From a candidate division WOR-3 bacterium (GTDB taxonomy: Bacteria; Hydrothermota; Hydrothermia; LBFQ01), in contig JBDRWW010000004.1 of assembly GCA_039802605.1 (NCBI GenBank), positions 56,566 through 120,565 of the forward strand: 64,000 bases of DNA. Reading direction: 5' to 3'. A program made the position numbers and the translations under genes. This document shows, piece after piece, positions 19,931 through 57,787 of the stretch. The notes beneath the pieces were generated by a model. That model searched no databases. It had not been told where the DNA came from and worked only from the letters and a program-made list of their open reading frames with translations. Each line of letters opens with the position of its first letter. Position 1 is the first letter of the stretch.

Positions 19931-19960
19931 AGTTTAAAGTTGTAAAATTTCCTTTAAAAT
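19931..19960. promoter_or_regulatory. Divergent pair of -10 boxes
   Basis: Minus acaactt-TAAACT 19936-19931 (7 nt to TTG); plus TAAAAT 19955-19960 (8 nt to ATG). Confidence 0.55.
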
Positions 19961-19968
19961 ACTCGCTT

Positions 19969-20484
19969 ATGAAAGTAATTGAGGAAAGGGTTGTATATAA
20001 GGGGAAGTTTATGGATTTTGTGGTTTTGAGGTATGAGAAGGGGGGTAAGGTTTATGATAGGCAACTCGTTAAGCATCCCGGTGCCGTTGTTATAATTCCC
20101 GTTATGGATGACGGAGGGGTTATATACGAGAAACAATTTAGGTTTGCGGTTGGAGGGTATATATACGAGTTACCCGCTGGAACGCTTGAACCGAACGAAG
20201 ACCCCTTGGAAACCGCAAAAAGGGAGTTGATAGAGGAAACCGGATATGAAGCGGGAACTTGGGAAAAGTTGGCGGAGTTTTACCTGGCACCGGGCTATTC
20301 AACGGAGTATATGCATTTGTATTTGGCAAGGGATTTAAAGTTCGTTGGAAGAAAACTTGACGGGGATGAGGATATAGAGGTTGTTATATGGACTAAGGAG
20401 GATATAGAGAGGGGAATAAGGGAGGGGATAATAAGGGATGCCAAAACCCTCATAGGTAGTATGTTTTATCTAAACAGGCTTTAA
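19969..20484 (+). CDS. nudF: NUDIX hydrolase, ADP-ribose pyrophosphatase-like
   Basis: [40 protein letters not shown]. Confidence 0.85.
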
Positions 20485-23516: not shown

Positions 23517-25624
23517 GATTGATTGCCCTTTAACTTACCTATGCCCCCTATCAGGGCCTGCTTTCTTGAAACCTTTGCCCTTCCCATTTCATCAATATCT
23601 ATAACCTTTACCAAAAGTTTGTCCCCTACCTTTACAACTTTGCTCAAATCCTTAACGGGATTAACATCAAACTCGGATATGTGTAATAAGGCCTCTTTTT
23701 TACCTATTCTAACAAACACACCGTACTTTTCAATTCTATAAACCTCTCCCATATAAACCTTTCCAACTTCAAGGTCTTGGGCTATTTCGTTTATCATCTG
23801 CTTGGCCTTTTCAACATCCTCCCATTTTTCCCCATAAACAAAAACCTTACCGGTCTTATCGTCTATGGTTATTTTGGTATTTGTTTCGTTTATTATTGGT
23901 TTTATGTTCTTTCCGCCCGGACCTATGATTTCACCTATCTTGTTTATCGGAACGGTGAAAGTTATAACTTTGGGTGCGTATTTAGAGATTTCACTTCTCG
24001 GCTTTTCTATAACCTTATACATAAAATCCAAAATTTCCAGTCTGGCCTCTTTTGCCCTTTCAAGGGCATCCTTTATAATCTTAGGTGTTAAACCGTCTAT
24101 CTTTATGTCCAATTGTATTGCGGTTATTCCCTTATCCGTCCCGGCAACCTTAAAGTCCATATCTCCGAAGAAATCCTCCATCCCCTGTATATCGGTTAAT
24201 AATTTATAATTCTCACCGGATGTTATTAGGCCTATGGATATTCCCGCAACATGCTTTTTTATCGGGACACCCGCATCCATAAGGGATAAAGATCCACCGC
24301 ATACACTCGCCATTGATGTTGAACCATTCGAAGATAATATATCCGAAACTACCCGAATGGTATATGGAAATTCATTCTCTTCGGGTATTAGGGGTTCTAA
24401 TGCCTTTTCCGCCAAATTCCCATGCCCTATTTCCCTCCTTGAAGGACCCCTAAGGGGTTTAACCTCTCCCGTGGACATAGGGGGAAAGTTGTAGTGCAAC
24501 ATAAACCTTTTTATCTCTTCTATATCCAATTCGGTCATTATTTGAACATCCTCTTTTGTTCCCAAGGTTGTTGAAACCATTGCAACGGTTTCACCCCTCC
24601 CAAAGATTGCGCTTCCGTGTACCCTCGGCAAGAATCCCACTTCCGCAAATAGCGGTCTTATATCCTTCAAGCCCCTGCCATCAATCCTTTTATCGTTTTC
24701 AAGTATATATTTCCTCATCACCTCGGCTTCATAATTGTAAAGTATATCGCCTATTTCAACTTCACTGTTGGGATATTTTTCGGAAAGTTGGGAAATTATC
24801 TCCTCTTTTAATTTATCAAGGGCTTCGTTCCTCTCCCCTTTAACAGGGGTTAATAACGCCTCCAAAACCCTATCCTTTGCGAGATTTATAACATCCTCGT
24901 ACAAACCCTCGGGATAGGTTAGTTTTGTCGGTTCAAACTTTTCCTTCCCGTACTTATCCCTTATTTCCTCTTGCAAGTTTATTATAAGTTCAATATAAGG
25001 GGCTGCAAAATCCAAGGCGTCCAAAATTAAATTTTCGGATATTTCTCTTCCCCCGAACTCTATCATATGGAACTTCCCGGGTGTTCCGGCTACGAGGAGG
25101 TCAAAACCCCCTTCTTGCACCTCCTTATTTGTGGGAAATGCTATGAATTTCCCATCCTTGTACCCCACCCTTAACACCCCTATGGGTCCGTTAAAGGGAA
25201 TTTCGGAGATTGTTAAGGCCGCACTCGCCGCTATCGCCCCGAGGAAATTCCCCTCGAACTCCATATCGTACGATATCAAGAAAACCTCTAACTCCACATC
25301 GTCTATCATCCCCTTGGGGAAAAGCGGCCTTAAAGACCTATCAATAGCCCTTCCGTAGATAATCTCCTTTTCCCTCGGTTTTCCCTCCCTCTTAAAGAAA
25401 CTACCGGGTATTTTTCCGGCCGCAAAGGCCTCTTCCCTATATTCAACAAGTAGTGGCAAAAAGTCCCTTTTGTTTTTGGGATCGGCTTTTTTATAAGTTG
25501 CGGCTGCCAAAACCACCGTCTCGCCGATGCCAACCATCACCGCCCCGGCCGCCTGTTTAACCCACTTATCAACTACCGTTATAGTTAATTTTCTACCGCC
25601 TATATCTAAGGTGTATTTATCCAT
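23513..25624 (-). CDS. pnp: Polyribonucleotide nucleotidyltransferase
   Basis: Two RNase PH domains (GKIPGSFFKREG, RREIGHG, SNGSTSMAS, GDMDFKVAG), KH and S1 domains. Confidence 0.97.
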   Translation of the reverse strand: MDKYTLDIGGRKLTITVVDKWVKQAAGAVMVGIGETVVLAAATYKKADPKNKRDFLPLLVEYREEAFAAGKIPGSFFKREGKPREKEIIYGRAIDRSLRPLFPKGMIDDVELEVFLISYDMEFEGNFLGAIAASAALTISEIPFNGPIGVLRVGYKDGKFIAFPTNKEVQEGGFDLLVAGTPGKFHMIEFGGREISENLILDALDFAAPYIELIINLQEEIRDKYGKEKFEPTKLTYPEGLYEDVINLAKDRVLEALLTPVKGERNEALDKLKEEIISQLSEKYPNSEVEIGDILYNYEAEVMRKYILENDKRIDGRGLKDIRPLFAEVGFLPRVHGSAIFGRGETVAMVSTTLGTKEDVQIMTELDIEEIKRFMLHYNFPPMSTGEVKPLRGPSRREIGHGNLAEKALEPLIPEENEFPYTIRVVSDILSSNGSTSMASVCGGSLSLMDAGVPIKKHVAGISIGLITSGENYKLLTDIQGMEDFFGDMDFKVAGTDKGITAIQLDIKIDGLTPKIIKDALERAKEARLEILDFMYKVIEKPRSEISKYAPKVITFTVPINKIGEIIGPGGKNIKPIINETNTKITIDDKTGKVFVYGEKWEDVEKAKQMINEIAQDLEVGKVYMGEVYRIEKYGVFVRIGKKEALLHISEFDVNPVKDLSKVVKVGDKLLVKVIDIDEMGRAKVSRKQALIGGIGKLKGNQS

Positions 25625-25627
25625 AAC

Positions 25628-25897
25628 TTATTTAACATCCCTGAGACCCAGTTCCTTTATAACCTGAACATACCTCCTATAATCCGTGCGCTTCAAATAC
25701 CTCATAAGTTTCTTCCTCTTCTCCACCAGTTTTAAAAGCCCATACCTTGAATGCACATCCTTTTTGTGCCTCTTAACATGCTCGGTTAGGTGGTTTATCC
25801 TCTGGGTTAATAATGCTATTTGCACCTCCGGGGATCCCGTATCCTTTTCGTGCCTCATAAACTTTCCTGCTACCATTTTCTTTTCTTCCCTTAGCAT
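25628..25897 (-). CDS. rpsO: 30S ribosomal protein S15
   Basis: [24 protein letters not shown]. Confidence 0.97.
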
Positions 25898-25905
25898 AAG
25901 CGGTT

Positions 25906-25957
25906 ATTATAAACCCGAAAAGGAATTCCAACAGGGGAAACCTTTCAACTTTAAAAT
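25906..25957. promoter_or_regulatory. Divergent -10 boxes (rpsO / yebC)
   Basis: Minus TATAAT 25911-25906 (8 nt to ATG); plus tcaactt-TAAAAT 25952-25957 (7 nt to ATG). Confidence 0.65.
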
Positions 25958-39918: not shown

Positions 39919-40877
39919 ATTATAAACACCTTCCAGCCCGCGGCTACCAAGAAGTTTATTATCGCGAGTGGAACGAGAACCTTCCAAGAAAGCGATGTCA
40001 TCTGATCCAACCTAAGCCTAAGGAATGTCCAGCGGAGGAAAACCACTATGGAGAAAAGTATAAATCCCTTTACGAGTGTCCAAACAAACCCCGGTAATGC
40101 CGGCCCATACCACCCACCGAAGAAGAGGGCGGATACCAACAAACAGCCGGCAAATAGGTATAACCATTCCCCAAGGTAAAACAAACCAAACTTTATACCG
40201 GAGTACTCAACATTAAAACCGGATACCAACTCCGATTCGGCCTCTGCTATGTCCAAAGGTGCCCTGTTTGTTTCCGCAAACAGACCGAACAAAACCAACA
40301 ATAGGGATACCTGCCCTATGACGGGTACGAATGCAAACCATATATTGCTCTGATTTTCTATAATTTCGTAAAGGTTTAGCGTTCCGTAAAAAGCCGCAGG
40401 GGTCAAAACCCCTAAAACGAATGGTATTTCATAAGAAACCATTTGACCCAATGCCCTAAGGCTTGAAATTATGGGATACTTTGAACCCGAACCCCAGCCC
40501 GCCATAAGGGCTGTTATTGGTTCAAGGGATGCTATTGCAAAAACCAAGATTATACTCCAATCGGTGTTTATTATGTACAGGTCTTTGTCAATGGGTATTG
40601 GCGCAAAAAACCATATAGAGGCCGAGGCGAACAAAAGCGGCGCAAGGTTGAACAGAAGTTTATCCGCATCCGCCGGAACAATGTCCTCTTTTGAAAGCAG
40701 TTTTAACCCGTCGGCCACAACTTGCAGCCAGCCGTGGGGTTTCCCAACATAATAAGGACCTATACGGTTTTGCAATCTGGCCGCTATTTTTCTTTCCAAC
40801 CATACCAAAACCGGACCAACCGCCAGGGCTATAATTAATACCACCAAAGGGGCTAAAATATAATTCGGAATATTCAT
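39915..40877 (-). CDS. nuoH: NADH-quinone oxidoreductase subunit H
   Basis: ERKIAARLQNRIGP, ADGLKLLSKE, QMVSYE, AETNRAPLDIAEAESELVSGFNVEYSG; TAAAAT 8 nt upstream. Confidence 0.95.
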   Translation of the reverse strand: MNIPNYILAPLVVLIIALAVGPVLVWLERKIAARLQNRIGPYYVGKPHGWLQVVADGLKLLSKEDIVPADADKLLFNLAPLLFASASIWFFAPIPIDKDLYIINTDWSIILVFAIASLEPITALMAGWGSGSKYPIISSLRALGQMVSYEIPFVLGVLTPAAFYGTLNLYEIIENQSNIWFAFVPVIGQVSLLLVLFGLFAETNRAPLDIAEAESELVSGFNVEYSGIKFGLFYLGEWLYLFAGCLLVSALFFGGWYGPALPGFVWTLVKGFILFSIVVFLRWTFLRLRLDQMTSLSWKVLVPLAIINFLVAAGWKVFII

Positions 40878-40888
40878 AAGCGGGTATT

Positions 40889-41722
40889 TTACCCTTGGGG
40901 AATTTGTTTTTGGATTATTTCCTCGCAGATTTTAAAAATATCGGGATTTATACCCAGTTCCTCGCCCTTTTTACGGTTTCCCAAAAGATCTTTAACGGTT
41001 ATTATTCCATCGTTAAAGAGTTTATTGGCGGTTTTTTCATCAATCTTTAAAATCGTTATGGGGAATGTTTGAGTTTTGTGTATCAAATATTCCAGGCCTT
41101 CGCCTTTCGGGTAATTCCATCCCAAAAGGTTTAACCCATAGCATTTGGAAAACCTTATTGCGTCTTGTGTGAATTTGGTGTTTGTTATGAGGAAAGGCTT
41201 AATATCCCTATAAACCCCCTTTATATCGTTAAACCTTGAAACCACATACATTGAAATTTTTACATCAACCTTTGTCTCAAAGTTTTCGTGATGTTTGCAT
41301 TCAGCCATTAGTCTCTCTCCTTCCCTTTCCGCAATTACATCAACCTCATGGCTAACACACTTCCCATCCACAATATTACCGATGGTAATCCTATACCCAA
41401 GCTCCTCAAATATCTTCCCAACAAACCTTTCAAAGGGATAACCCGATGGCCCGAGTTTTGCTAATCCTTCCTTTAAGCCGTACAAAGAGGCACTAACAGG
41501 TTTAACCCTTTCCAATGATTTAAAAACCAAGGCGTAAAGCTCCCTTGTTGTTATCAAATCGTAAATATACGGTTCTACCTCTTTTAATACCTCCCCTATC
41601 GTATTATCATCTGCCCCCACCCTCTTTAAAGCCCTTATAACCTTTCCCTCATCGTATTCTTCCACCTCGCCGTTCCTCTTTACAACCCTTATTATTTCAG
41701 GTTTTGTAAGGGTTTGATACAT
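40889..41722 (-). CDS. ATP-cone domain + Mrr-type restriction endonuclease domain protein
   Basis: VVKRNGEVEEYDEGKV (ATP cone); GYPFERFV; HEVDVIA..AECKHH (PD-D/ExK); TNTKFT.DA. Confidence 0.82.
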   Translation of the reverse strand: MYQTLTKPEIIRVVKRNGEVEEYDEGKVIRALKRVGADDNTIGEVLKEVEPYIYDLITTRELYALVFKSLERVKPVSASLYGLKEGLAKLGPSGYPFERFVGKIFEELGYRITIGNIVDGKCVSHEVDVIAEREGERLMAECKHHENFETKVDVKISMYVVSRFNDIKGVYRDIKPFLITNTKFTQDAIRFSKCYGLNLLGWNYPKGEGLEYLIHKTQTFPITILKIDEKTANKLFNDGIITVKDLLGNRKKGEELGINPDIFKICEEIIQKQIPQG

Positions 41723-43517: not shown

Positions 43518-43975
43518 CCCTTAATCCTCTTTATTATTTCCGTGGTTGAATACCCCTCAATGTATTTGAAGATCTCCACCCTTCCCCCCCTTGAAATCAC
43601 AAAATCCGCGCCCACTACGCTTTTAATATCGTAATCTCCACCCTTAACCAAAACATCTGGTTCCAATTCCATAATCAACCTCTCGGGTGTATCTTCGGAA
43701 AATGGAATGACGAAATCCACCCATTTTGTCGCCAGAAGGGCAAAAGCCCTATCTTCCAGTTTGTTTATAGGCCTTCCCTCTCCCTTCAACCTCTTTATGG
43801 AATCGTCGTCGTTTAAACCCACGACCAAAACATCCCCCAAAGATTTTGCGAATTTCAGAAGTTCAAGATGTCCCCTGTGTAGTATATCAAAACATCCGTT
43901 CGTAAAAACTATCTTATAACCCGCATCCCGCAGGCATTTACCAAGGGTTTTGGGGTCTTTGTGTAGGCCCTTCAT
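43505..43975 (-). CDS. rfaE2: D-glycero-beta-D-manno-heptose 1-phosphate adenylyltransferase
   Basis: FTNGCFDILHRGH, GLNDD.SIKRLKG..RP, LVKGGDY, STT. Confidence 0.9.
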   Translation of the reverse strand: MKGLHKDPKTLGKCLRDAGYKIVFTNGCFDILHRGHLELLKFAKSLGDVLVVGLNDDDSIKRLKGEGRPINKLEDRAFALLATKWVDFVIPFSEDTPERLIMELEPDVLVKGGDYDIKSVVGADFVISRGGRVEIFKYIEGYSTTEIIKRIKGWVG

Positions 43976-44559
43976 ATCTCAAAGGGAACCCTGTTGGTAA
44001 TAGCCTCGTATAGTGTATATGGGTCTAAGGTGGAAATGTCTTCTCCTCTTGGAACCCCGGAGGGCAAACGGGTAATCTTTACACCCTTTACGCCTTCAAG
44101 TAGAAAGTATGCCGTAACTTCACCCTTAACATCGTTGGGGAGTCCGACGATAACCTCGGAGATGTTGAAGGTTTCTAAAAACTTTATGAACCTTTCCCTT
44201 GGGATTTTGTCCGCAGAAATCCCTTCCGTTGGAGAAATTAGCTTATAAACCACGAAATACCTACCCATATATCTCCCAGAGTCTTCAATTCTGAAAACCT
44301 CAAAGGGTGATCTAACCAAAATAACCATATTTTCACGACCTTCATCGGAACAAACCCCGCATACATCACCCTCGCATATCATACCGCAATACTTACACAG
44401 ACCTATGCTTTCCAAACCCTTTAACGCATCTATTAGGGATTTCCTTTTATCCTCGTTAAAAATTAAAAACTGAACGAGTCTTTCAGCCGTTATTGGTCCT
44501 ATTTCCGGAAGGGAGTTCAGGATTTCCCTCGCCTTTACATACGCCTTTGGGGGTTTCAT
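43972..44559 (-). CDS. recR: Recombination mediator RecR
   Basis: LPEIGPITAERL, C4 zinc finger CKYC..CGVC, TOPRIM GEVTAY, ITRLPSGVP. Confidence 0.88.
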   Translation of the reverse strand: MKPPKAYVKAREILNSLPEIGPITAERLVQFLIFNEDKRKSLIDALKGLESIGLCKYCGMICEGDVCGVCSDEGRENMVILVRSPFEVFRIEDSGRYMGRYFVVYKLISPTEGISADKIPRERFIKFLETFNISEVIVGLPNDVKGEVTAYFLLEGVKGVKITRLPSGVPRGEDISTLDPYTLYEAITNRVPFEI

Positions 44560-44870
44560 AGAAACTTTTCAAGTTCCTTTCTGTATTCTGGGGGAAGTTC
44601 TGCTAAAAACTCCTTAGTCTTATCCCTTTGGTATTCCATAGCCTTTTTAATGGCGGTATTAACGGCATTCACTATTGCGTTTTCAACAGATCTAATATCC
44701 TTTAAACCCTCGGGGTTTATCTTAACCTCCAAGAGTTCCCCCGTCCCGCTTACGACAACCCTAACATTGCCGTTATACGCCTCCTCTTCAAACCTCATCT
44801 TTGAGAGTTCTTTTTGTAGTTTTTTCGCCCTCTGCTGCAAATCCCACAACTTTTTAAAATCACCAAACAT
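44556..44870 (-). CDS. ybaB: YbaB/EbfC nucleoid-associated protein
   Basis: GNVRVVVSG, VKINP, IVNAVNTA; adjacent to recR. Confidence 0.88.
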   Translation of the reverse strand: MFGDFKKLWDLQQRAKKLQKELSKMRFEEEAYNGNVRVVVSGTGELLEVKINPEGLKDIRSVENAIVNAVNTAIKKAMEYQRDKTKEFLAELPPEYRKELEKFL

Positions 44871-44878
44871 AAGTGAGA

Positions 44879-44911
44879 ATTCTAAGGTTGGTTAAATATC
44901 CACCTTATAAT
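44879..44911. promoter_or_regulatory. Divergent -10 boxes (ybaB / tRNA-Arg)
   Basis: Minus ccaacct-TAGAAT 44884-44879 (8 nt to ATG); plus tccacct-TATAAT 44906-44911, 13 nt before the tRNA. Confidence 0.65.
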
Positions 44912-44924
44912 ATTGTCTCCAAAA

Positions 44925-44998
44925 GCGTCCGTAGCTCAGATGGATAGAGCGTCGGCCTCCGGAGCCGAAGGTCGCGGGTTCAAGTCCCGCCGGACGCG
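44925..44998 (+). tRNA. tRNA-Arg(CCG), CCA not encoded
   Basis: Acceptor stem GCGTCCG/CGGACGC; D arm GCTC..GAGC; anticodon arm TCGGC-CTCCGGA-GCCGA; T arm GCGGG-TTCAAGT-CCCGC. Confidence 0.96.
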
Positions 44999-45001
44999 CT
45001 T

Positions 45002-46681
45002 ATGAATAGGCCTTGGTATAGCCATTATGAAAAAGGGGTTCCAAGGAGTATAGATTATCCGGAAAAACCCCTTTGGGTTATCCTTAAAGATGCCGCCCAA
45101 AACTATCCGGAAAACACGGCATTATGGTTTGAGGGTTGGCAATGCACATACAAGGAGTTATACGAGTATTCCTTAAAGTTTGCAAGTTTTTTGCAGTCCT
45201 TGGGGGTTCAAAAAGGGGATAGGGTAGCCTTAATGCTCCCCAATTTGCCGCACTATCCCATATCGTATTATGCCACATTAATGGTTGGCGGTGTTGTTGT
45301 TCAACTAAACCCCTTATATACACCTTCCGAATTGGAATTTTTATTAAACGACTCGGAAACAAAAGTCCTGATAACCCTTGACATCTTTTGGGATACCGTA
45401 CAGAAGGTCGCGGATAAGGTAAATGTGGAAAAGTATATAGTCGGTAAAATTCCGGATTTCCTGCCTTTTATAAAGGGTTTGCTCTACCCCTTGGTTGCCA
45501 ATCCAAAACCCAAGGCCGTTCCATTTGATGGTCTTAAATTTTTCAGGTTTTCGGATTTTTTAAAACATTCGGAACCAAACCTCCCGGATATAAACCCTAA
45601 GGAGGATCTTGCGGTTTTGCAATACACCGGTGGGACAACGGGAACACCAAAGGCTGTTATGCTAACCCATTTTAACATTTTGGCAAACACCTATCAATCG
45701 GTTTCTTGGTTTACGCAATTGGAACCCGGGAAAGAGGTTTCATTGTGCATAATCCCCTTCTTCCACAGTTATGGTATGACCGTTGCGTTAAACTTTTCCG
45801 TGAAGGTTGGAGCAAAAATGGTTTTGATGCCAAAGTACCATACAAAAGATGCCCTAAAACTCATTCAAAAGCATAAGGTAACACTGCTTCCCGGGGTTCC
45901 GCAGATATACGCCACAATATCAAACCATCCGGAGGTTTCAAAGTATAATTTGAGGTCTATAAAGGCATGCATATCCGGGGCCGCACCCCTACCCTTAAAG
46001 GTCAAAGAGGATTTTGAAAGGCTAACGGGCGGGAAATTGGTAGAGGGTTATGGGCTTTCGGAGGCCTCGCCGGTAACCCATTGCAATCCCATTTACGGTT
46101 TAAATAAACCCGGAAGCATTGGATTGCCATTTCCCGATACGGATGCAAAAATCGTTGATTTAGAGGATGGTAAGAGGGAAATGCCCGTAGGGGAAGCGGG
46201 TGAGTTGATAATTAAAGGCCCTCAGGTTATGAAGGGTTATTGGAAAAGGCCGGATGAAACCGCCCTCGTTCTAAGGGATGGTTGGCTTTACACGGGTGAT
46301 ATAGCGTATATGGATAACGACGGGTACTTTTACATAGTGGATAGGAAAAAGGAAATGATAATCGTGGGTGGGTTTAACGTTTATCCTAGGGAGGTTGAAG
46401 AGGTTTTAATGAAACACCCGAAAGTTAAAGATGCAATAGTTGTGGGTATTGAGCACCCAATAAAGGGTGAGATTGTTAAGGCTTATGTGGTTTTAAAAGA
46501 GGGGATGAGCGCTTCTTCCGAAGAATTAATAAACTTCTGCAAGGAACACCTGGCTCCATACAAGGTACCCGCGGAAATAGAATTCCGTAAAGAACTCCCA
46601 AGGACGGTAGTGGGTAAGGCTTTGAGGAGGGTTTTAAAAGAAGAGGAGGAAAAGAGGTTTAAGCCTTATAAGGATAAGTGA
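45002..46681 (+). CDS. fadD: Long-chain-fatty-acid--CoA ligase
   Basis: QYTGGTTGTPK, EGYGLSEASP, GPQVMKGYW, TGDI, VDRKKEMI, VGK. Confidence 0.92.
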   Translation: MNRPWYSHYEKGVPRSIDYPEKPLWVILKDAAQNYPENTALWFEGWQCTYKELYEYSLKFASFLQSLGVQKGDRVALMLPNLPHYPISYYATLMVGGVVVQLNPLYTPSELEFLLNDSETKVLITLDIFWDTVQKVADKVNVEKYIVGKIPDFLPFIKGLLYPLVANPKPKAVPFDGLKFFRFSDFLKHSEPNLPDINPKEDLAVLQYTGGTTGTPKAVMLTHFNILANTYQSVSWFTQLEPGKEVSLCIIPFFHSYGMTVALNFSVKVGAKMVLMPKYHTKDALKLIQKHKVTLLPGVPQIYATISNHPEVSKYNLRSIKACISGAAPLPLKVKEDFERLTGGKLVEGYGLSEASPVTHCNPIYGLNKPGSIGLPFPDTDAKIVDLEDGKREMPVGEAGELIIKGPQVMKGYWKRPDETALVLRDGWLYTGDIAYMDNDGYFYIVDRKKEMIIVGGFNVYPREVEEVLMKHPKVKDAIVVGIEHPIKGEIVKAYVVLKEGMSASSEELINFCKEHLAPYKVPAEIEFRKELPRTVVGKALRRVLKEEEEKRFKPYKDK

Positions 46682-47433
46682 AGGTATTAGGCTTTATTCC
46701 GATAAGTGTATGGGATTTGTTGGATGTTGCCATCATTAGCGTTTTTATATATTTCGTATTAAGGGTTTTAAGCGGAACAAAGGTTATAGTGCTGATGGCT
46801 GGGATAACCCTTTTATTCCTCATCGGGCTTATCGCGAAGGTATTACAACTACCCTCCCTATCCCTTCTCGTATCGGCCGTACAAACCTTTGGAATAGTTA
46901 TATTAATCGTCATATTTCAACCCGAGATGAGGAAGTTTCTCATGGAAATGGGTTCATTACCCCTTGTAAAGTTTTTCATACCGGAGGAAAGTGTCCCAAT
47001 AGATGAAATATTATCCGCCATTGAAGAAATCCTGAGGAGGAGGTTGGGGGCCTTAATAATCATTGAAAGGAGGTTGTCTTTAAGGGACTTTGCCGAGGAT
47101 ACGGGGGTGATAATAGACGGCAAGCTATCCGCGCCGTTATTGGTTTCCATTTTTGACAAGCGTTCCCCTTTACACGATGGTGCGGTTATCATAAAGAATG
47201 ATAGAATAATAGCCTCCTCCGTGATGGTTCCCATGAGCGTAAGGTATAGGGGGACTGGTGCGAGGCATAGGGCGGCTGCCGGCATTACGGAGGTATCCGA
47301 TGCTATATCAATTGCTGTATCCGAGGAAAGGGGAACTATAACCCTATTCCATAAGGGTGAGGCTTATTACAATTTAACCCTTGAAAGGCTTAGAACATAC
47401 CTCGAAAGGCTTTTGAGATATGAGAAGATTTAA
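46678..47433 (+). CDS. dacA: Diadenylate cyclase CdaA
   Basis: Three N-terminal TM segments; FQPEMRK; SPLHDGA; GARHRAA; VSEERG. Confidence 0.92.
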   Translation: MKVLGFIPISVWDLLDVAIISVFIYFVLRVLSGTKVIVLMAGITLLFLIGLIAKVLQLPSLSLLVSAVQTFGIVILIVIFQPEMRKFLMEMGSLPLVKFFIPEESVPIDEILSAIEEILRRRLGALIIIERRLSLRDFAEDTGVIIDGKLSAPLLVSIFDKRSPLHDGAVIIKNDRIIASSVMVPMSVRYRGTGARHRAAAGITEVSDAISIAVSEERGTITLFHKGEAYYNLTLERLRTYLERLLRYEKI

Positions 47434-48214
47434 CGAAATAGTATTGGCCTTAATTATAGCCGCTATTATTTGGATATACGCAAAACTCAACCAAACTTAT
47501 TCATTTGTGTATAAAATACCCGTTGAATACAACATATTGGCAAAGGGGTTAGCACTTTTAGAAGGGGAGGATAGTGTAATTGTAGAAGTTTCGGGTAGGG
47601 GAATCAACCTATTAAAGTTCAGATTGCAAAAACCCATCTTGGTATATAGCCTCAATGGTTCAAGCCTTGAAGGCGTTTTGTATATAGATACATCTTATTT
47701 AAAGCCCAAACAGGAAGTTGGGATCACCCCACTTTATCCCAAGGTTATAAACTACAAACTTGACCGGATTTCAAAGAAGGTTTTGCCCGTAACACCCATA
47801 GTAAAGGGAAACCCAAAGATAGGGTATTTTTATCTTGGATGGGCGGTTAGCGAAAATGTTATCGTTGAAGGACCCAAAACCATTTTGGAAAATCTTGATT
47901 CAATACCCACATATCCGATAGATATTACGGGAAAAACGAGGGATTTTGATGTATACACTAAGGTTTTTACGGAGGGTTTGAATATAAAGGTAAAACCCGA
48001 AAGCGTAAAGGTTTCAATACTCATAGATTCCCTTATGACCAAGGAGGTACCCCTTGTTTTACCTGATACAATAATAACTGTGAAGATACAGGGCCCGAGC
48101 AGAATAGCTTCACCGATTAATTCTTTAAGGGGGAAAAGGTTTAAGGATTCCGTTTATGTTGAACTTCCAGAAAATATAATCCTGTTGGAATTACCTGTGC
48201 ATCTTAAAAAGTAA
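47420..48214 (+). CDS. YbbR/CdaR-like regulator of diadenylate cyclase
   Basis: ALIIAAIIWIY TM, YbbR-like repeats (VEVSGRG, VIVEGPK); follows dacA. Confidence 0.8.
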   Translation: MRRFNEIVLALIIAAIIWIYAKLNQTYSFVYKIPVEYNILAKGLALLEGEDSVIVEVSGRGINLLKFRLQKPILVYSLNGSSLEGVLYIDTSYLKPKQEVGITPLYPKVINYKLDRISKKVLPVTPIVKGNPKIGYFYLGWAVSENVIVEGPKTILENLDSIPTYPIDITGKTRDFDVYTKVFTEGLNIKVKPESVKVSILIDSLMTKEVPLVLPDTIITVKIQGPSRIASPINSLRGKRFKDSVYVELPENIILLELPVHLKK

Positions 48215-54989: not shown

Positions 54990-56252
54990 TTACCTCAACA
55001 TATTCCCAAGTTTCCCCGTTAATAATCTATGTATATCTAATCCTATGGCAAACGCGGACAGTAGTATTATTACGAAAATCCCGAACATCAGAATCCAGAG
55101 CATAGCCCTTTCGGGTATTCTCCTCCCCGTTATACGGAGGTATATCTCATCAACTATCATAAAAAGGATATGACCCCCATCCAAGCCCGGTATGGGTAAA
55201 AGGTTTAGTATTGCGAGGTTTATGGTGATAACTATGAGGATTGAAAGCCAGACATCAAAACCCGATGTAGCAGCCTCCGCCATTACCGCACCTATGGTCA
55301 AGGGACCTCCTATGCTCTCTTGGGGTTTAACCTCACCCGAGGCCAATTTCTTTAAACTCTCGTATATTAAAAGGGAGAATTTCTTGGTTAGGAAAACCGT
55401 TTTATCCAAAACCTTGGAAAAACTTGGAGGCCATTTTTTGTTATAATAAACATATATTCCGAGTTTTCCCCCTTCACTGCTCTCCTTTACGGGAAGTTTT
55501 ATGTTTATTCTTTTACCATCTCTATATACGGTTAAGAATACCGTATCCCCTTCTTTTTTATCTTTCACATAATCAACGAGTTGTTGCCAAGAGAATATCG
55601 CAACGGTATCAACCTTTGCTATCCAGTCGTATTTTTTGAGTTTCCCATGAGCGGGAAAACCCTTAACCGTTGAACCAACTACCGGGAGTATTCTTAACTC
55701 TATACTATCGGAATAGTCCCCTTTAAAGGTTAAAATCTTTTTCTTACCACCCCTTAAAACCTCAATACTTTTTTCCCTTTCTCCGCTTAAAAGACTTAAA
55801 ACCTCTTCTCCCGAATTGACAACCTTTCCGTTTATTGATAGTATTGAATCCCCCCTTTGAAACAACGGCGTTTTTGATTTATAAACCTTTGTGGTATAAA
55901 CGGATAACTCTCCACTATAAGCGGATATTATAAATGCTAATATCGGGCCGAGTATAAAGGAAAAGAGAGGCCCGGCAAATACCACCCACAACCTCGCCCA
56001 AAGGGGTTTTTTGTAAAAGGTTTGTGGGATACCGGCTGGCCCTTCATCCTCAAACCTAACATAACCCCCAAGGGGCAAAGCGGATATTCTGAAATCTATT
56101 CCTTTTATATTTACGCCCCAAATCCTACTCCCAAACCCAATAGAAAAGACGGCGGGTTTTATGCCTACGGATAAGGCTGCCAAGAGATGCCCAAGCTCGT
56201 GCCAAACTATCAGCAAACCAAAACCTATGACTATCCCCAAAAACTCCATCAT
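54990..56252 (-). CDS. rseP: Site-2 protease RseP with PDZ domains
   Basis: HELGH, FSIGFG, PLGGYVR, AGP, GPLTI, NLLPIPGLDGGH. Confidence 0.92.
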   Translation of the reverse strand: MMEFLGIVIGFGLLIVWHELGHLLAALSVGIKPAVFSIGFGSRIWGVNIKGIDFRISALPLGGYVRFEDEGPAGIPQTFYKKPLWARLWVVFAGPLFSFILGPILAFIISAYSGELSVYTTKVYKSKTPLFQRGDSILSINGKVVNSGEEVLSLLSGEREKSIEVLRGGKKKILTFKGDYSDSIELRILPVVGSTVKGFPAHGKLKKYDWIAKVDTVAIFSWQQLVDYVKDKKEGDTVFLTVYRDGKRINIKLPVKESSEGGKLGIYVYYNKKWPPSFSKVLDKTVFLTKKFSLLIYESLKKLASGEVKPQESIGGPLTIGAVMAEAATSGFDVWLSILIVITINLAILNLLPIPGLDGGHILFMIVDEIYLRITGRRIPERAMLWILMFGIFVIILLSAFAIGLDIHRLLTGKLGNMLR

Positions 56253-57787
56253 TTTGCCACACTTACAGCCCTTACTTCCCTTATAACGACCACCTTTATT
56301 TGCCCAGGATACTGCATTTCGTTTTCAATGGCCCTTGCAATTTCTTCTGACAGGGCATAAGCCTCCAAATCGCTAACCTTTTCGGCGCTAACTATAACCC
56401 TAACCTCTCTACCCGCATACAGGGCGTATACCTTCTCAACACCGGGAAATCTGTACGCTATCCTTTCCAAATCTTGTAGCCTCTTTATATACTGTTCCAA
56501 ACTTTCCCTACGGGCACCTGGTCTTGCGCCGGATATGGCGTCGGCCGCCGCAACGATTGGCGCTATTATGTATTGCGGTTCCACATCTCCGTGGTGGGCC
56601 GCTATTGCATTAACAACGGCGTCCTTTTCGCCGTACCTTTTCGCTATGTTTGCTCCTACCAGGGCATGTGGGCCCTCCTCATCTTCAACCACCTTACCTA
56701 TATCGTGTAATAATCCAGCCCTTTTTGCATCCTCAACGGATACCCCAAGTTCCGCCGCCATTATACCCGCCAACTTTGCCGTTTCTATGGAATGCAAGAG
56801 TAGGTTTTGCCCATAAGATGTTCTAAACTTCATCTTACCGATCAGATAAACCAAATCCGGATGCATATAGGATATTCCCAATTCAACAAGGGTTTCCTCT
56901 CCGATTTGCCTTATATATTTGTCAAACTCTTCATCAACCTTTTGCGCTATTTCCTCTATCCTTGCGGGGTGAATCCTCCCATCCTGTATAAGCCTCTCCA
57001 AAACCACCTTTGCCTTTTCCCTTCTAAGGGCGTCAAATGAGGAAAGGACGACTATTTCTGGGGTATCATCTACTATAAGTTCGACACCGGTTATGGCTTC
57101 AAAGGCCCTTATGTTTCTACCTTCTCGCCCTATAATTCTCCCCTTAATCTCCTCCGAAGGTAGTTCAACAATTGTGGCGGTAACTTCCGCCGTTCTTGAT
57201 GCCGCACACCTCTGAATGGCCATGGCTATTATTTCCTTTGCCTGCTCTTCCGCCATCCGTTTTGCTTCCTCTTTTATTTTCATCGCGATCTGGGCGGCCT
57301 CAAGTTTTGCCTTACTTTCAACCATCCGCAGGAGTTCCTGCTTGGCCTCTTCCACCGTCATCTTGGCGATTTCTTCGAGTTTTCTCATGATTTCTTCCTC
57401 GGCATTCATAACCCTTTCTTCCCGCTTTTTCAACTGCATTTCCAAGTTATAAATTTCCCTTTCCCTCTTGCGCAGGTTTTCCTCCTTTCTACGCAACCTT
57501 TCTTGGTATTCGTTTAACTCCCTTTCCAAGACCTTTAACTCGTGTCTCTTCTTTGAAAGTTCCGCCTGTACCTGCTTCTTTTCCTCTTCAATCTTTTCCT
57601 TAGCCTGTTTTAAATATTCCTCGGCCTTTCTTTTTGCCTTTTCCCTCTCCTTCCTTAAAATCTCCTCCGCTTCCTTCCTTACCCTATTTATGGTTCTCTT
57701 ACGGATCTCATTGGCAAACCAAAAACCAGCTCCCAAAATTAAAATGCTAAAAACCGCAGAAAGTATTAGTATCAGCACCGCATTCAT
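56249..57787 (-). CDS. rny: Ribonuclease Y
   Basis: N-terminal TM plus coiled coil, KH (GRIIGREGRNIR), HD (LLHDIGK), ADAISGARPGAR; SD AAGGAGGTG upstream. Confidence 0.96.
   Translation of the reverse strand: MNAVLILILSAVFSILILGAGFWFANEIRKRTINRVRKEAEEILRKEREKAKRKAEEYLKQAKEKIEEEKKQVQAELSKKRHELKVLERELNEYQERLRRKEENLRKREREIYNLEMQLKKREERVMNAEEEIMRKLEEIAKMTVEEAKQELLRMVESKAKLEAAQIAMKIKEEAKRMAEEQAKEIIAMAIQRCAASRTAEVTATIVELPSEEIKGRIIGREGRNIRAFEAITGVELIVDDTPEIVVLSSFDALRREKAKVVLERLIQDGRIHPARIEEIAQKVDEEFDKYIRQIGEETLVELGISYMHPDLVYLIGKMKFRTSYGQNLLLHSIETAKLAGIMAAELGVSVEDAKRAGLLHDIGKVVEDEEGPHALVGANIAKRYGEKDAVVNAIAAHHGDVEPQYIIAPIVAAADAISGARPGARRESLEQYIKRLQDLERIAYRFPGVEKVYALYAGREVRVIVSAEKVSDLEAYALSEEIARAIENEMQYPGQIKVVVIREVRAVSVAK

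Follow-up and report, generated by a model that had tools for sequence, protein, structure and literature searches.

How is a protein gene expressed when its start codon lies only three nucleotides (nt) behind the last residue of a tRNA? The question is raised by a 64,000-nt stretch of DNA (G000:C4:56566-120565, hereafter the window) from the genome of a Caldipriscus-like (WOR-3) hot-spring bacterium (G000; 1.65 Mb, 41% G+C, 23 contigs, 90% complete), in which the sole tRNA gene, that of tRNA-Arg(CCG), directly precedes the gene of a fadD-like acyl-CoA ligase. The best reading of the junction is that 3' processing of the tRNA releases a leaderless mRNA, and the same arrangement was found behind most tRNA genes of the host.

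ARAGORN placed the tRNA at 44925-44999. Counting from the T-loop, the 7-bp acceptor stem (GCGTCCG/CGGACGC) leads to the discriminator G44998 and, in agreement with the predicted fold, the CCA-less gene spans 44925..44998 on the plus strand. It is followed by the spacer CTT (44999..45001, plus strand), which is at once the trailer of the tRNA and the putative 3-nt leader of the mRNA and would hold the cleavage site. The fadD-like open reading frame (ORF; 45002..46681, plus strand; 559 amino acids (aa); Pfam AMP-binding and AMP-binding_C) begins with ATG and has no Shine-Dalgarno sequence. Neither a Shine-Dalgarno sequence nor a terminator nor a -10 box was found from G44998 to the ATG at 45002, and consensus scans of the region 44400-45400 returned neither a promoter-like nor a terminator-like site. 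The junction (tRNA up to G44998, CTT, ATG at 45002) and the absence of these three signals from it had both been put forward in a preliminary description of this DNA, and both proved correct, the former in every detail.

The position of the fadD start is well constrained. The reading frame is closed by a stop codon inside the tRNA, 45002 is the first ATG, GTG or TTG after that stop, and a search for an alternative start, upstream or downstream, revealed none in frame near 45002. Homologues of FadD in a wide range of phyla can be aligned with it from its first or second residue, which excludes a start further downstream. Upstream of fadD a single promoter-like element is seen, a perfect TATAAT (44906..44911, plus strand), recognised by eye in the context CCTTATAATAT and located 13 nt ahead of tRNA position 1. 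In the minimum-energy fold of the junction the acceptor, D and T arms are formed, the anticodon arm is slightly irregular and GCUUAUGA is unpaired. Downstream, fadD overlaps by 4 nt the gene of the diadenylate cyclase cdaA/dacA (46678..47433, plus strand; Pfam DAC and CdaA_N), which is followed by cdaR, a YbbR-domain gene (47420..48214, plus strand; Pfam YbbR) and the final member of the unit. The unit ends at a convergent gene of the lptF/G type on the opposite strand (Pfam LptF_LptG) and not at a tRNA.

A survey of tRNA-to-ATG distances had been proposed in the preliminary description, and it identified the layout as the rule in this genome. All 46 tRNA genes were inspected, 42 of which are terminal, i.e. 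the next gene is not a tRNA, and four stand directly before another tRNA in an Ile-Pro-Pro-Pro-Val cluster. A tRNA was counted as abutted when an ORF on its own strand, 45 codons or longer, had its first start codon 0-12 nt after the discriminator. This was the case for 35 of the 42 terminal tRNAs, 28 of them with a spacing of 0-4 nt. When the same test was applied to 20000 random positions, 2753 passed (13.8%), and among the positions following the stop codons of protein genes 407 of 1555 did so (26%); it is clear that the abutment of tRNAs and ORFs is far above both controls. The seven exceptions include tuf, located 19 nt past tRNA-Gln(CTG) and provided with AAGGAGG, as well as three tRNAs followed by runs of 6-7 T. 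CCA is encoded in none of the 46 tRNA genes, and their trailers are strikingly uniform, with Y (C or T) at position +1 in 46/46, T at +2 in 44/46 and T at +3 in 42/46 (Y-U-U in the RNA).

The abutted ORFs are for the most part recognisable genes. A Pfam family was assigned at E ≤ 1e-5 to 25 of the 35, among them those of ribosomal proteins L28 and L33, MurA, Asd, Prs, PurB, AhcY, PdxT and QueD, together with NuoA, NuoH, an Rrf2 regulator, a CopA-type ATPase, a patatin and a NUDIX protein; the remaining ten had none. In 14 abutted ORFs, including L28, MurA, Asd, Prs, PurB, AhcY, PdxT, Rrf2 and the HMA domain of CopA, the domain begins at residue 2-8 and at profile position 1-7, and with domains lying within the first eight residues these starts must be real. 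A TA[TAG]AAT box precedes 41 of the 46 tRNA genes at a distance of 8-16 nt, which indicates that each tRNA or tRNA cluster heads a unit of its own. Such a unit is predicted to open with the promoter and a leader only a few nt long, after which come the tRNA, a gap of 0-12 nt and the ORF. No ORF adjoins the RNase P RNA gene or the transfer-messenger RNA (tmRNA) gene in this genome, so the layout is specific to tRNAs.

The host seems well accustomed to messages with little or no leader. Among 1565 ORFs that are 100 codons or longer and do not overlap, 313 have a TA[TA]AAT box ending 6-9 nt before the start codon, with a peak at 8-9 nt, and the triplet most often found ahead of those starts is CTT (66/313), the same as ahead of fadD. 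Within the window, TAWAAT-N3-CGCTTATG occurs three times versus zero expected, the examples of TAWAAT-N3-CGCTT-ATG lying at 19955-19971 (plus strand), 25895-25911 (minus strand) and 40875-40891 (minus strand); the resemblance of the CGCTT-ATG ending at fadD to that of leaderless promoters of the rpsO type, pointed out in the preliminary description, is thereby borne out. As judged from these signals, the genome is largely leaderless. The choice of start codon separates the two groups of ORFs. Of the 212 ORFs abutted by a promoter at a spacing of 8-9 nt, 205 begin with ATG or GTG and only seven with TTG; the 35 that lie behind a tRNA have 23 TTG and 12 ATG starts. RNA polymerase favours a purine as the initiating nucleotide, and the bias towards TTG behind tRNAs thus fits 5' ends that are made by processing. 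In 12 cases the U-rich trailer doubles as the start codon (N73-U-UUG). Furthermore, 13 ORFs start 0-1 nt past the discriminator, and a cut that spares both products must therefore fall at the discriminator, with a precision like that of RNase Z. The ATG of fadD itself fits the AUG/GUG habit of known leaderless systems, from which the abutted class as a whole departs.

The nearest named relative of the host is Candidatus Caldipriscus sp. T1.2, the FadD of which is 81% identical. NCBI taxonomy assigns T1.2 to the phylum Ca. Caldipriscota, which is the WOR-3 lineage according to the available text of PMC12285271. The tRNA-Arg(CCG)-fadD junction is present in all five genus genomes and in T1.2, at 76-91% DNA identity, with the spacer CTT in G000, G001, G004 and T1.2, TTT in G002 and TT in G003. 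In the seven genomes of the sister genus tRNA-Arg(CCG) is followed by other sequence, and a FadD of 60% identity elsewhere is encoded behind an ordinary leader.

For the layout as such, up to 30 tRNA loci were sampled per relative, plus the neighbouring tRNAs on those loci, in one genome of the same family (G007), two of the same order (G017, of low G+C, and G012) and two of the same class (G024 and G020, similar to G000 in genome size). Starts within 4 nt of terminal tRNAs were found in 11/30 cases in G007, 13/26 in G017, 3/28 in G012 and 0/31 in both G024 and G020; within 12 nt the respective numbers were 16/30, 15/26, 5/28, 13/31 and 6/31. Beyond the host genome, the layout thus extends to part of the host family and, within the order, to one further family. 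The pairs Lys-murA, Trp-rpmG, Gly-rpmB, Glu-purB, Cys-rrf2, Thr-pdxT and Val-nuoH are common to G000 and G007, as recognised by unscored N-terminal similarity.

Looser arrangements were seen in some of these relatives. In G012 (loci L250, L253, L263 and L277) many tRNAs are followed by Y-T-T, a -10 box and a leaderless ORF that starts 19-27 nt past the discriminator, which suggests an alternative to the abutted layout or an intermediate stage of it. In G024 (loci L232, L237, L247 and L248) CCA is encoded in 14 of 34 sampled tRNA genes, and ORF starts cluster 9-12 nt past the discriminator behind a U run (CCA-U5-7-ATG), with no Shine-Dalgarno sequence, which resembles a relaxed version of the abutted layout. 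A small ORF with a GIY-YIG-like N-terminus (MAKWYVYVLRSLKD) begins 0 nt after tRNA-Pro(TGG) in G007 (locus L131, which carries three tRNA-Pro(TGG) copies) and 7 nt after it in G012 (locus L256).

Taken together, tRNA-Arg(CCG) and fadD-cdaA-cdaR would form one transcription unit, read from the -10 promoter of the tRNA. RNase P would remove a 5' leader of a few nt, and an endonucleolytic cut at the discriminator, or within about 1 nt of it, would part the tRNA from the message. The tRNA would then gain its CCA, and the message, presumably a 5'-monophosphate CUU-AUG, would be read independently of a Shine-Dalgarno sequence by ribosomes used to 5'-terminal starts. Co-transcription of the tRNA with fadD is very likely and, from the sequence, nearly forced, since no further promoter is seen for such essential genes as murA, asd, prs, rpmB and rpmG in the same layout. 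As there is no room for a promoter or a ribosome-binding site of fadD, the gene should be expressed from the tRNA transcript and translated in a Shine-Dalgarno-independent manner. The cut at the discriminator, and the nuclease that would make it, are what we infer from there. We regard the complete chain of co-transcription, cleavage at the discriminator and leaderless translation as fairly probable. In the interpretation offered by the preliminary description, expression from the tRNA transcript without a Shine-Dalgarno sequence is upheld. The assignment of the cut to RNase Z is not, as detailed below, nor is a special link of fatty-acid activation and synthesis of cyclic di-AMP (c-di-AMP) to tRNA maturation: fadD-cdaA-cdaR is just one of 35 functionally unrelated units, and with so generic a layout a coupling to c-di-AMP is unsupported.

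Of the enzymes needed for such a pathway, RNase P and a CCA-adding enzyme are accounted for at the gene level. RNase P RNA (RF00010) was detected in G000 with 211 bits. Two class II nucleotidyltransferases have CCA-adding models as their best matches, which answers in the affirmative, at the level of predicted activity, whether a CCA-adding enzyme is present, a check also proposed at the outset. As regards RNase P, type A RNA was found in all six genomes searched of the host's own family (G000 included) and in none of three genomes of the sister family (G012, G013 and G014), which may have a divergent RNase P RNA or a protein-only RNase P.

The cutter is the difficult part. RNase Z models TIGR02651 and TIGR02650 gave no match in G000, and among 26 genomes drawn from the genus, the family, the order and the class none passed the cut-off of TIGR02651, so that the RNase Z named in the preliminary description has no counterpart there by homology. 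Every ORF of at least 150 aa with the motif HxHxDH was also compared with NCBIfam. The five metallo-beta-lactamase (MBL) ORFs of G000 obtained in this way all belong to other families: a GloB-like protein, a 435-aa beta-CASP protein, a YtnP-like lactonase, a PRK00685-type hydrolase and a generic 293-aa MBL protein (G000:C14:12367-13245), the nearest solved relatives of which are ST1585 and PqsE-type hydrolases and not an RNase. Weak RNase Z matches in the order-level genomes G017 and G013 likewise proved to be generic MBL proteins, and a 231-aa protein of one genus genome, matching the N-terminal half of the RNase Z model with 60 bits, is not a full RNase Z.

Several other nucleases are encoded. 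The candidates for the cut are RNase Y, the gene of which lies in the window (56252..57763, G000:C4:112817-114328, minus strand; TIGR03319, 635 bits, over the cut-off), the 435-aa beta-CASP nuclease (G000:C8:20128-21432; 327 bits to the Thermus thermophilus ribonuclease TTHA0252), and an enzyme that homology does not recognise; for RNase Y the role would be that of the endonuclease. Similarity of the same beta-CASP protein to the Cas14/aCPSF1 nuclease module was also observed. The polynucleotide phosphorylase (PNPase) gene (23558..25603, G000:C4:80123-82168, minus strand; TIGR03591, 869 bits) may provide a 3' trimmer, and two RNB-family proteins, including RNase R, are present in the genome.

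Several observations weigh against a precise cut that frees a leaderless message. Besides RNase Z, neither RNase E/G nor RNase PH was found in G000, and for RNase J the count over the cut-off was 0/9; in a genome of 90% completeness such enzymes are to be called not found and not proven absent, but the same gaps recur in the relatives. The RNA data are neutral: in about 3% of each of two raw-read hot-spring metatranscriptomes there were no reads on the window, and none of the contigs from two further RNA runs spans the junction, those of X1 covering 44600-44742 and 45257-45500; the contig pieces of X1 and X2 that cover the tRNA have unrelated flanks and are best read as tRNAs of other organisms. 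A two-hexamer sigma-70 scan gave no promoter for the tRNA, the promoter being called from its -10 element alone. The 16S rRNA ends in ...ACACCTCCTTTC and has kept the anti-Shine-Dalgarno sequence CCUCC, which, together with the AAGGAGG of tuf, indicates that initiation led by a Shine-Dalgarno sequence is open to the host. To our knowledge, a UUG start on a leaderless or nearly leaderless mRNA is unusual in E. coli, mycobacteria and haloarchaea. Finally, abutment is not order-wide, G012 having for the most part a separate -10 box between tRNA and ORF.

The main rival explanation takes the nuclease inventory at face value. The tRNA-mRNA fusion would be translated uncut, the folded tRNA serving as its 5' handle, and the tRNA would be freed later by 3'-to-5' decay, in which RNase R, the second RNB protein and PNPase would stall at the acceptor stem before CCA is added. 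One-step maturation of tRNA 3' ends by RNase R has reportedly been found in Mycoplasma genitalium, and the two RNB-family proteins and PNPase are present in G000, where searches for RNase Z, E/G, J and PH had no success; the start region, moreover, is unpaired beside the folded tRNA in the minimum-energy structure. However, a start codon 0-4 nt from the acceptor stem, as in 28 of the 42 terminal tRNAs, should leave the ribosome no path for the mRNA, to judge from structural considerations. The Y-U-U trailer, which is also found on tRNAs without an ORF, would be superfluous for exonucleolytic trimming, and one full message would be spent per tRNA. Fitting the inventory and neither the spacing nor the trailer, translation of the uncut fusion is in our view unlikely. 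A second rival retains a true RNase Z as the cutter, the gene of which would have been missed because it falls into the 10% of the genome that was not assembled or has diverged beyond recognition. Bacillus subtilis RNase Z is said to act on the class of tRNAs that are encoded without CCA and have uridine-rich trailers (Pellegrini et al.), and the tRNA genes of G000 match this substrate class; the incomplete assembly and the 60-bit half-model match in one genus genome point the same way. Against this stand the two models without a match in G000 and the 26 relatives of which none passes the cut-off; the five MBL-fold ORFs of G000 and the matches in G017 and G013 represent other MBL proteins. A hidden RNase Z is less probable still than an uncut fusion.

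The two remaining explanations dispense with processing. If fadD had its own transcription start site within or just past the tRNA, its message would be an ordinary primary leaderless transcript, in keeping with the many -10 boxes 6-9 nt before starts in this host and with the -10 box between tRNA and ORF in G012. The 20 nt before 45002, however, belong to the T-stem and the acceptor strand, are rich in G+C and contain neither TAWAAT nor any promoter-like site, the other 34 junctions are alike, and the starts of 23 of the 35 begin with T, a poor initiating nucleotide; a separate start site is thus very improbable. Still harder to credit, and close to negligible, is the view that the adjacency has no function, being a by-product of genome compaction or of mis-called starts. 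The genome is indeed small and dense, and more than a quarter of the post-stop positions, as given above, pass the abutment test, but 35 of 42 is far beyond either control, the N-termini are fixed by homology and alternative in-frame starts are lacking. The fadD junction has moreover been retained in genomes of 76-91% DNA identity, and the two class-level relatives of similar genome size have no start within 4 nt (0/31 each).

Release of the message by tRNA 3' processing, the preferred reading, has its closest parallel in the tRNA punctuation of animal mitochondrial transcripts, reportedly described by Ojala, Montoya and Attardi in 1981. In both systems ORFs lie directly behind tRNA genes that lack CCA, removal of the tRNA would generate the 5' end of an mRNA with little or no leader and no Shine-Dalgarno sequence, and CCA would be added afterwards; genes for RNase P RNA and CCA-type transferases, of predicted activity, are present in G000. 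The differences are nevertheless considerable. Mitochondrial messages are flanked by tRNAs in a long polycistronic transcript, whereas in G000 each tRNA or cluster has its own promoter and the message would be punctuated on its 5' side only. G000 is a free-living bacterium with 46 tRNAs, RNase Z of the ELAC2 type was not found in it, and two thirds of its abutted ORFs start with TTG.

In plant mitochondria, tRNA-like folds known as t-elements act as processing signals, and there, as proposed for G000, a tRNA or tRNA-like fold marks the end of a neighbouring RNA. RNase Z also frees archaeal or plant RNAs from co-transcripts with tRNAs (PMC4247193, in the part of that paper available). These cases concern single loci and depend on RNase Z, whereas G000 would use true tRNAs genome-wide and has no detectable RNase Z. 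A bacterial operon joining tRNAs to an mRNA is known from E. coli (thrU-tyrU-glyT-thrT-tufB). With the units of G000 it would share one promoter for tRNA and protein gene, and the tuf gene of G000 behind tRNA-Gln(CTG) is conventional in this respect; unlike the tufB type, which has a leader with a Shine-Dalgarno sequence, fadD and the 34 other ORFs lie 0-12 nt behind their tRNAs and have none.

Leaderless translation is documented in Actinobacteria, Deinococcus-Thermus and archaea (PMC4633059, as far as its accessible text goes). G000 resembles these systems in that the start would lie at or near the 5' end, initiation is expected to be Shine-Dalgarno-independent and a -10 box stands directly before many ORFs (the 313 of 1565 mentioned above). 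Known leaderless mRNAs, however, have a primary triphosphate end at the A or G of AUG or GUG, whereas the end proposed for the abutted class would be a processed monophosphate, often at U-UUG. With the B. subtilis RNase Z pathway G000 has in common that all tRNA genes are CCA-less and followed by Y-U-U trailers; it differs in the defining enzyme, which was searched for and not found.

A search of the open full-text literature, with subscription journals outside its scope, returned no account of tRNA-abutted ORFs in a free-living bacterium. Metabolism and phylogeny are the subjects of the accessible literature about Caldipriscus and WOR-3 (PMC12285271, PMC11696919, PMC12542636 and PMC4791363). 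According to this literature, Caldipriscus is abundant in hot-spring communities for which metatranscriptomes have been published, those of Conch and Octopus Spring being named (PMC11696919), and an isolate of the WOR-3 lineage, sy37, now exists (PMC12285271).

If the pathway holds, tRNA punctuation would not be confined to mitochondria. It would serve a free-living bacterium as a working means of gene expression, including that of the housekeeping genes murA, asd, prs, purB, rpmB, rpmG, nuoA and nuoH, and would tie the supply of tRNA to that of mRNA at 35 loci. Processed 5' ends could then feed leaderless initiation, which would extend to UUG. The combination of CCA-less tRNAs and Y-U-U trailers with an inventory that yielded no RNase Z, E/G, J or PH leaves a gap that may be filled by a new tRNA 3' endonuclease, or by RNase Y or a beta-CASP nuclease acting in a new capacity. 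More tentatively, and with somewhat less than even confidence, a deep-branching, hyperthermophilic lineage of WOR-3 (Caldipriscus and part of its order) may be considered to express most of its tRNA loci as tRNA-mRNA fusions cut precisely at the discriminator by an enzyme other than RNase Z. One cut would then make both the 3' end of the tRNA and a 5'-monophosphate, essentially leaderless mRNA. Two thirds of these messages would start with UUG, which RNA polymerase could hardly provide as a 5' end. Mitochondrial punctuation would in this way have an equivalent in bacteria that extends over a whole genome, depends on a new enzyme and adds a new class of leaderless starts. For annotation, gene finders that expect a Shine-Dalgarno sequence or ATG would mis-call tRNA-abutted starts.

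Two minor observations concern neighbouring genes. The tmRNA gene (G000:C1 330004-330374, minus strand) has its own CCTTATAAT promoter, and in the 80 nt downstream of its 3' side no ORF start was found in any of the three frames. Upstream of tRNA-Arg(CCG), a YbaB/EbfC gene (44556-44870, minus strand) and a Toprim-domain (RecR-like) gene (43972-44559, minus strand) are divergent from the tRNA promoter; the ATG of YbaB is about 35 nt from the -10 box of the tRNA, and the intergenic region is therefore very short.

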